Shown in pieces: positions 580-1,538 of a stretch of 4,189 bases of DNA. Below the pieces are notes generated by a model. It was not told the origin of the DNA. It saw nothing but the letters and a program-made list of their open reading frames with translations, and did no database searches. A program made the position numbers and the translations under genes. Source of the DNA: a virus (lineage: Duplodnaviria; Heunggongvirae; Uroviricota; Caudoviricetes); IMG/VR virus record IMGVR_UViG_2681813225_000018; one strand, given 5' to 3'. Every line of letters starts with the position of its first letter. Position 1 is the stretch's first letter.

Positions 580-1317
580 TCATTCACTCTCTTTCAAACC
601 AGCTTTAACTGTTTGTGGTTTTGGGTAAGGCTGGACTTTGAATAGCTTTGTGTTGAGGCGTTTTCTGGCCCTCTTGTTCAGAAACCGGATGTAACGAAAC
701 TGTCGGAACTTATGCACACTGGCTCTGTCGATATTAGCCCTCAGATGTTCACCTCGTTGTCCGCCTCGTTTAATGGCATTCCTGCAAATCTCGTGATACC
801 ACTCGCCATCAAGTTCATAGAATGTTGATTCATGGCTGCCTACATAATCAAAATTGCTTGCCTGATACACGACACCAAGACAGCCACAACGCTCATCTGC
901 AAACGACTGAACCCACTGTACCTGCGGATAAAGCTGCCTGATTAGCTTGAGCGCGTAACTGATTGCCCTTGATTCGGAGTTTCTCGGCATACAGTCATGC
1001 ATCCATAGCCGGTTAAGCTCCATATATTCTCGGTTCTGCGTACCCGTTACGACGCGTGCACCACTGTTTGGGTTAAGGGCGTAACCCCATTGCATTACGC
1101 CAACAAGTTCCCGTTCTGAAAATATGCCCAGATGAAGGTAGGAATTATTTACGAAACGGTGGCTGTAATGTTTATTGACGATAACCAGTCTGGCCAGCCA
1201 GCAACTTATTGTCTCAACCCGCAACTCACGGGAGCCATAACCAACGATATTGTCGTTATAGCGAATAAGTTCAGGCGTGCTGATGATACGGGATGTGACT
1301 TGCTTTCTGTTCCCCAC
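580..1317 (-). CDS. mom: Mom-like DNA adenine modification protein (Mu Mom family, predicted acyltransferase-like), 245 aa, GTG start
   Basis: 245-aa ORF whose 5' end overlaps the 3' end of a clear Com homologue by 47 nt, which is the Mu com-mom arrangement. AAGGAA ribosome-binding site 9 nt upstream of the GTG at 1317-1315. Start codon lies inside a predicted hairpin (see 1312-1343). Assignment rests mainly on synteny with com; I cannot align to Mu Mom from memory. Confidence 0.6.
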
Positions 1318-1471
1318 GACAGGATTTCCTTGTGTATGTGGGGTGCTCTGTGGCGCTCGGAGATGTGATTTGATTGAGGGTTTTACAGCGCGGACATTTT
1401 ACTTCCAGATAACTGAAACTGGCCCGTGCCAGTAGCTTATTGCAGTGTCGGCACCGTATGTTTCGATACAT
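1271..1471 (-). CDS. com: Com-like zinc-ribbon translational activator of mom, 66 aa
   Basis: [35 protein letters not shown]... closely resembles Mu Com as I recall it (MKSIRCKNCNKLLFKADSFDHIEIRCPRCK...), with the same CxxC-x15-CxxC spacing. Strong AGGAGG ribosome-binding site (1487-1482) 10 nt upstream of the ATG at 1471-1469. The track ORF's upstream ATG at 1516 has no ribosome-binding site and adds non-homologous residues. Stop at 1271-1273 lies inside mom. Confidence 0.8.
1312..1343 (-). promoter_or_regulatory. Predicted translation-inhibition hairpin in the mom leader, sequestering the ribosome-binding site and GTG start
   Basis: On the - strand, CCCCAC (1343-1338) pairs with GTGGGG (1317-1312), a 6-bp G/C-rich stem. 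The 20-nt loop contains the AAGGAA ribosome-binding site and the 3' arm is the mom GTG start plus second codon. Matches the known Mu mechanism in which Com opens a start-site hairpin. Confidence 0.4.
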
Positions 1472-1515
1472 GGCCGCATAACCTCCTGCTTTGTTGTTGA
1501 TGCCTTTCTCATGCA

Positions 1516-1538
1516 ATCGATCGACAAAAACGATCGAT
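1516..1538. promoter_or_regulatory. Inverted repeat ATCGATCG-N7-CGATCGAT carrying two Dam GATC sites; candidate operator or methylation-sensitive site upstream of com
   Basis: Perfect 8-bp inverted repeat arms at 1516-1523 and 1531-1538 around ACAAAAA. GATC at 1519-1522 and 1532-1535. Lies 45-67 bp upstream of the com ATG on the - strand. Confidence 0.45.

Follow-up and report, generated by a model that had tools for sequence, protein, structure and literature searches.

Why should a DNA-modification module of the kind found in bacteriophage Mu, com-mom, lie beside a lambda J-like tail gene? The question is raised by a stretch of 4189 bases from the IMG/VR virus record IMGVR_UViG_2681813225_000018 (the window, meaning the whole stretch that was analysed), in which com and mom occupy the minus strand between a fragment of the lambdoid tail-tip gene J and a sialate-esterase-like gene. 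According to a first-pass annotation of this DNA, the module lies outside a recognisable Mu context and may be a laterally acquired cassette. We consider it very likely that a Sp18-like, Mu-like transposable prophage has inserted itself into J of a lambdoid prophage, that the window shows the right end of this element, and that com-mom is its own right-end operon, in the position and orientation known from Mu. This reading is carried by the identities of the genes, the conservation of the functional residues of their products, an RNA motif with an adjacent hairpin, an upstream element with GATC sites, the junction with J, and the synteny observed in relatives.

The open reading frames (ORFs) of the window were taken from a six-frame listing and then scanned against Pfam, and genome searches were performed by megablast against 5426 complete Escherichia coli genomes. 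An NCBIfam scan returned no match for any protein of the window; therefore, the naming of the genes is built on Pfam, PHROGs, PDB and BLASTP.

The junction in J and the end of the inserted element

The J reading frame of the plus strand runs from position 1 to 562, and its J-homologous part comprises the first 451 bases (1-451, plus strand), which encode an Ig_J domain (Pfam, E 1.3e-42). Up to base 451, this fragment is 98 % identical to J of Stx phage 2851, whose intact gene continues past this point with 'cccgccacc...' for 1350 nucleotides (nt) more. Because the homology stops at 451 and the intact gene continues differently, we place the junction at 451/452 and regard J as the 3′-truncated insertion target. 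Judged against the J of phage 2851, the gene is cut after the Ig_J domain and has lost its last 450 codons, and the host lambdoid prophage should make no working tail tip as long as the Mu-like phage stays in place.

The sequence that begins at 452 has the properties of a phage terminus. Positions 452-552 (minus strand) form the right terminal region, an attR-type end, of a Sp18-like prophage and contain three direct GTATCAAA repeats (469-476, 491-498 and 526-533, minus strand) that are putative transposase-binding sites. Three copies were found against 0.11 expected, and all are located near the end. In a GATACAAA-type check, GTATCAAA occurred three times at 469-533 on the minus strand and three times, inverted, at the opposite terminus of a relative of full length (L003 23875-24029, plus strand). 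The end of mom is separated from the terminus by 128 nt in the window and by 115 nt in Mu.

The same terminus recurs in many genomes. A search with positions 452-1540 matched 285 places in 233 of the 5426 genomes; 228 records cover the query, and among the matches listed (40 rows) every record with full coverage begins at base 452. The sequences that flank this end differ among the genomes and include creC, dcuC, flgL, a terminase gene, an HNH endonuclease gene, fimbrial genes and others. At 99.5-100 % identity, the segment from 451/452 to 4189 is present in 44 E. coli records, none of which joins it to positions 1-450. GenBank record LC727881 describes an 'inserted Bacteriophage Mu-like phage' within a Stx2c phage; positions 452-552 are conserved there, and its depositors place the boundary of the element at the same base.

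Target duplications of 4 bp (AGAA, GATG and TAAT) were observed in all three of the independent Sp18-like insertions in relatives, at L001 11998-12001 and L003 24047-24050, at L004 5997-6000 and L005 246-249, and at L007 5997-6000 and L008 993-996. The depositors of LC727881 also annotate a 4-bp duplication. Models with a 5-bp duplication, in which either terminus is shifted by one base, fit one of the three insertions and were rejected, since 4 bp fits three of three. The termini read ...GCTATA-3′ on the right and ...GGTTACA-3′ on the left, and the target duplication of the window is predicted to be GGTA (448-451).

The relatives also show what follows beyond the right edge of the window. NZ_AP042523 contains a 39.2-kb Mu-like prophage that is 100 % identical to positions 451-4189 (3739 bases). 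Its genes are arranged in the order of a repressor-region helix-turn-helix protein, the Mu transposase, the AAA ATPase (B), Gam, a Mor/C-family activator, a lysozyme, Mu-type head genes, sheath, tube, tape measure, baseplate, the invertible fibre genes, a recombinase (Gin-type), the esterase, DUF1378, DUF826, com, mom and the end of the element. The tail genes are of the contractile type, and the element is inserted in a lambdoid tail-chaperone gene. In E. coli O157:H7 FRIK2455, the gene order is the same and the element lies in dcuC. In relatives with 99.6-100 % identity over 451-4189, gin and the invertible fibre segment are located just past the position that corresponds to the right edge of the window, with gin at a distance of approximately 2 kb.

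The right-hand block of the window consists, on the minus strand, of genes for a DUF826 protein (2095-2340), a DUF1378 protein (2376-2555) and a SASA-esterase/DUF6645 protein (2613-4189), all named by Pfam; the last of these runs off the window. Because the esterase, DUF1378 and DUF826 genes of the relatives lie between the Gin recombinase gene and com, we assign the block to the Mu-like phage. At the DNA level, it has no megablast match in lambdoid or Stx phage records and is found only in inserted Mu-like phages, and its interpretation as a lambdoid late-region segment was therefore rejected. In LC727881, the DUF826 part alone of this block is conserved, which marks the block as a region that varies within the Mu-like family. 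Blocks of this SASA-esterase/DUF6645-DUF1378-DUF826 type (2095-4189 in the window) are also known in lambdoid phages and Stx phages.

The com and mom genes and their control elements

The mom gene (580-1317, minus strand) starts with GUG and encodes 245 amino acids (aa), and by homology its product belongs to the Mom family of tRNA(Gly)-dependent adenine N6 modification enzymes. The first-pass annotation had considered this overlapping downstream gene to be Mom-like in position, size and leader and had proposed a profile search as the check, and the outcome of that search was strongly positive. The protein matches Pfam PF25680 with E 5.8e-77 and 258.4 bits against a cutoff of 27.1 bits, over profile positions 1-202 of 202, and it matches the 'Mom-like' PHROG 1384 (7e-84). 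Mu Mom, which has been characterised biochemically and structurally, is 79 % identical over the full length (BLASTP, E 2e-141), and the alignment with the crystal-structure chain PDB 8BV8_A (E 1.2e-124) is free of gaps over 229 residues. Residues W48, H58, Y59, R111, S124, D149, R151, Y159 and W181 have been reported as important for Mom activity (PMC13219725, PMC7261163; numbering of PMC13219725), and in a global alignment all nine are identical to those of Mu Mom. Judged from sequence, the GNAT core with the Mom-specific insertion that resembles a helix-turn-helix (residues ~175-209) is present, and this insertion is identical to Mu at 28 of its 35 positions. The window protein is longer than Mu Mom by 2 N-terminal and 12 C-terminal residues.

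The com gene (1271-1471, minus strand) encodes 66 aa from an ATG codon with AGGAGG 10 nt upstream, and by homology its product is the zinc-ribbon translational activator of mom. The recognition of a Com homologue by the first-pass annotation is borne out by a match to Pfam PF10122, Zn_ribbon_Com (E 3.3e-12, 46.1 bits against a cutoff of 22.9 bits), and by 47 % identity to Mu Com. The zinc ribbon, CxxC-N15/16-CxxC, is retained, with Cys 7/10/26/29 corresponding to Cys 6/9/26/29 of Mu. The span that had been given for the module, 1271-1516, does contain com; however, it follows a mechanically listed ORF with a TTG start, and the likely coding sequence is 1271-1471, which is also the extent of the RefSeq coding sequence in a 100 % identical relative. 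The ORF of 245 aa lies mostly outside that span. The two genes overlap by 47 nt in the window and by 50 nt in Mu.

The leader of mom, which lies within this arrangement, contains two elements of the type expected for a Com switch. The motif selected by Com in systematic evolution of ligands by exponential enrichment is bipartite, GAGNNCC-N2-3-GAGNNCC (PMC6483171). A putative Com-binding RNA motif of the form GAGNNCC-N3-GAGNNCC, GAGCGCCACAGAGCACC, is present at 1342-1358 (minus strand), where it would lie directly 5′ of the stem described below. It occurs once in the window when both strands are considered and in 19 of 2000 dinucleotide shuffles, and the Com site of Mu, GCCUGCGAGCAUCCC, can be aligned with it. 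The second element is a putative translation-inhibition hairpin (1312-1343, minus strand) in which CCCCAC (1343-1338) pairs with GUGGGG (1317-1312) and the GUG start of mom is enclosed. The hairpin also pairs the GG of the AAGGA Shine-Dalgarno sequence (1331-1327). The CCCCAC/GUGGGG stem is part of the minimum-free-energy fold of the RNA, and Mu gives an equivalent CCCAC/GUGGG stem.

Upstream of com, a palindromic ATCGAT-N11-ATCGAT element with two GATC (Dam) sites is located at 1516-1538 and represents the counterpart of the region upstream of the Mu mom promoter, Pmom. The element occurs once in the window, compared with none in 200 shuffles, once in each Sp18-like relative, and once in Mu (L002 4175-4197), where it lies directly upstream of the annotated late promoter. 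In Mu, this is the Dam-methylation/OxyR control region. The C-dependent promoter of Mu mom is composed of a weak -35 hexamer (ACCACA), a 19-bp spacer, a -10 hexamer (TAAGAT) and a C site. Farther from com, separating the esterase/DUF826 block from the region upstream of com, a terminator-like hairpin of 13 pairs followed by TCCCTTTTAT is present at 1750-1779 (minus strand), which suggests that com-mom has its own promoter somewhere in 1472-1750.

A gene of the Mor/C family is present in the full-length relatives. A C-activator box was sought among k-mers common to the com upstream region and the late intergenic regions of the full-length relative. The only candidate, the 10-mer CCGCCCTGAA, which is present at 1590-1599 of the window and ahead of the protease gene, was rejected; it is mutated in FRIK2455 and lies within chance expectation. 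The GATC sites of the window are unevenly placed. None occurs in 1-1518, which covers the J fragment, the phage end, mom and com, and 5 of the 13 fall within the 173 bases at 1519-1691, upstream of com.

If these elements operate as they do in Mu, the following sequence of events may be proposed. The Mu-like prophage would have transposed into J of the lambdoid prophage and brought its own right-end com-mom with it; in the full element, the left end ...CACCTGGTTACA, followed by GGTA and the remaining part of J (cccgccaccattgaactg...), would lie ~39 kb away. During late lytic growth, com-mom transcription would start at a promoter that follows the 1750-1779 hairpin and would be governed by the Dam-methylation-sensitive element at 1516-1538. 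The zinc ribbon of Com would bind GAGNNCC-N3-GAGNNCC at 1358-1342 and open the adjacent hairpin that hides the Shine-Dalgarno sequence and the GUG of mom, and Mom could then be translated. Mom of Mu uses Gly-tRNA(Gly) as the donor of a glycine that it attaches to adenine N6 in double-stranded DNA; rearrangement of the adduct yields N6-carbamoylmethyl-adenine, a modification that stops many restriction enzymes (PMC13219725). The window Mom may be expected to do the same and thereby to shield the phage DNA. The enzymatic activity, the Com-dependent translation, and the control by Dam/OxyR and C are thus predicted here by analogy with Mu.

Opposing evidence and alternative explanations

Several observations weigh against this reading or against one of its parts. 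Regarding the leader, the folding energy of the start-codon hairpin is indistinguishable from that of shuffled sequences (z -0.8). For Mu, the folding energy is no better than that of shuffles either, and support for the hairpin therefore comes from its position and sequence homology and not from thermodynamics. Regarding the promoter, two of the three GATC sites of Mu are retained, and the distance from the GATC element to the ATG of com is 44 nt in the window and 71 nt in Mu, that is, 27 nt shorter. In a comparison with L002 4175-4269, the -35 and -10 hexamers and the C-binding region of Mu Pmom had no recognisable counterpart upstream of com, and a sigma-70 scan of 1472-1750 called no sigma-70-like site on the com strand. 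The activity of this mom allele is itself a prediction from homology. Moreover, the exact junction between J and the Mu-like end was found neither in the 5426 complete E. coli genomes nor in the GTDB representative genomes, in which the junction 30-mer had no exact match, a result that is expected for random transposition. Finally, the window ends within the esterase gene; gin, the transposase gene and the left end cannot be shown from it, and the prophage could be a truncated remnant.

The last point leads to the better of two alternative explanations, namely, that the com-mom end is a dead remnant, either because the right-hand part of a Mu-like prophage alone has survived deletion or rearrangement or because mom is silent or inactive without a Mu-type C-dependent promoter. 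The rest of the prophage does lie beyond the window, neither the promoter nor the C site of Mu can be recognised at the shortened spacing, and the plus-strand ORF annotated by RefSeq between com and the DUF826 gene is frameshifted compared with that of FRIK2455. However, both genes are intact and no functional residue is missing, and 3739 bases are 100 % identical to a relative that carries a complete 39.2-kb prophage. The promoter-region sequence is common to Sp18-like phages at many different sites, which implies ongoing transposition, and Sp18 of E. coli O157 Sakai, a Mu-like prophage, was predicted to be intact (PMC2669165). We therefore consider a truncated or silent remnant to be unlikely, and we give it very little credence.

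The other explanation, that com-mom is an autonomous anti-restriction cassette (a moron) acquired laterally by a lambdoid prophage between J and a lambdoid esterase block with no Mu phage around, can appeal to the lack of gin, the G segment and a transposase gene within the 4189 bases and to the frequency of the DUF826, DUF1378 and SASA-esterase families in lambdoid and Stx phages, but it is hardly credible when J is cut in mid-gene at 451, Mu-type terminal repeats follow from 452, the 452 end stands beside unrelated genes in 233 genomes, near-identical relatives run on into a Gin-type recombinase, invertible fibre genes and a full Mu-like genome, and the esterase region lacks a megablast match in lambdoid or Stx phage records. 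The neighbours named by the first-pass annotation are indeed there, with a J-like fragment on the left and an esterase-like gene on the right; however, gin is absent from the window only and lies beyond its right edge in relatives. A module that stands 128 nt from the terminus of a Mu-like prophage, with gin just past that edge, is not outside a Mu context, and the notion of a lateral cassette fails on both sides, because J is a disrupted target and the esterase-DUF1378-DUF826 block is resident in Sp18-like phages.

With the window read as the right end of a Sp18-like prophage within J, its principal value is one of annotation. It documents a prophage-in-prophage junction that inactivates a lambdoid J gene, and annotations should list the esterase block under the Mu-like phage and not under the lambdoid phage. 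By analogy with Mu, the DNA of the induced Mu-like phage of this strain is probably momylated.

The comparison with LC727881 provides an additional observation. In the sister Sp18-like phage of this record (LC727881.1, L004 6165-7217, minus strand), mom is replaced behind com by a gene for a C5-cytosine DNA methyltransferase of 350 aa (Pfam DNA_methylase, 2e-42; compared with window 553-1307). This phage has kept Com, the Com-binding motif, the hairpin around the start codon and the GUG itself; its divergence from the window spans the region from ~10 nt past the GUG to ~100 nt short of the right terminus. The annotation 'Com | DNA cytosine methyltransferase' is likewise present in one complete E. 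coli genome, NZ_CM129862. We tentatively propose, with somewhat more doubt than conviction, that in Sp18-like phages the ~750 bp from the com/GUG overlap to the 100-bp right terminus form an exchangeable DNA-modification cassette under one conserved Com switch, and that the control of mom and the transposition geometry are perhaps not simple copies of those of Mu. The promoter layout, which is 27 nt shorter and has no recognisable C site, and the 4-bp duplications are the reasons for considering that both may differ from Mu.

Between com and the DUF826 gene, positions 1586-2056 (plus strand) correspond to a RefSeq 'hypothetical protein' of 154 aa in FRIK2455 and to a frameshifted version in NZ_AP042523; the window differs there by indels of 1, 8 and 1 nt, and the 8-nt indel lies inside a tandem GTAGTAT array of three copies (1696-1716). 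The long ORF has no Pfam match. An ORF of 56 aa at 1886-2056 (plus strand), which is zinc-ribbon-like (CPxC...CPxC) and preceded by GGAG, is intact in all copies examined and may be the real gene of this region. Between this ORF and the convergent DUF826 gene, an 8-bp GC-rich hairpin, CCGGCAGG-GAAA-CCTGCCGG (2066-2085), may serve as a bidirectional terminator, although a terminator scan did not call it.

Comparison with known systems

In Mu (AF083977; Mu_52 Com and Mu_53 Mom), com and mom likewise lie at the very right end of the element, arranged and oriented as in the window. Mu and the window also have in common the Com-site sequence GCC-NNN-GAGCA-N-CCCAC and a mom GUG inside a hairpin of the CCCAC/GUGGG type. 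The differences from Mu concern the surroundings. In the full-length relatives of the window, gin is not adjacent to com, and ~3 kb with the esterase, DUF1378 and DUF826 genes and the intergenic region with its small zinc-ribbon ORF separate the two. The terminal repeats are GTATCAAA and not the GTTTCA-type sites of Mu, and the target duplications of the relatives are 4 bp, compared with 5 bp in Mu.

Other Mu-like elements, B3, FluMu (hin1523), Pnm1 (nma1821) and Hia5, carry com followed by a DNA methyltransferase gene (PMC3299994). The likeness to the window is that, at the right end of a transposable phage, a gene for a DNA-modification enzyme follows a Com zinc-ribbon gene and overlaps with it. 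However, the enzyme of these elements is an adenine methyltransferase unrelated to Mom, whereas that of the window is a true Mom.

The closest system is the family of Sp18 from E. coli O157:H7 Sakai and the Sp18-like prophages of Shiga toxin-producing E. coli (STEC), such as Phi804-3 and Mu_JNE082796, to which the window belongs. Mu-like phages such as SP18 were reported to encode homologues of Mom and its regulators at corresponding positions (PMC3299994), and the RefSeq names of these genes are 'protein mom', 'Mom family adenine methylcarbamoylation protein', 'tRNA(Gly)-dependent adenine aminoacyltransferase Mom' and 'Com family ... regulator'. The com-mom module of the window is therefore already known from documented Sp18-type phages and RefSeq-named genes, and because these are the normal right-end genes of a well-known prophage type, we regard the finding as ordinary. 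The location within another prophage also has precedents. In 13 closed STEC genomes of CC119, 6 of 10 Mu-like phages had a mobile genetic element as their insertion site; Mu-like insertions were present in several Stx phage genomes, and these Mu-like phages resembled Sp18 overall (PMC10132054). Mu-like prophages of 39.18 kb were found at strain-specific sites (PMC7430833). Sp18-like phages are known from variable sites, including the interior of other prophages and Stx phages. In our searches, their right end, mom and com are 95-100 % identical in 233 complete genomes, with an identical gene order. Compared with these phages, the window shows small indels in the com-DUF826 intergenic region, and the only feature particular to it is its insertion site in J.

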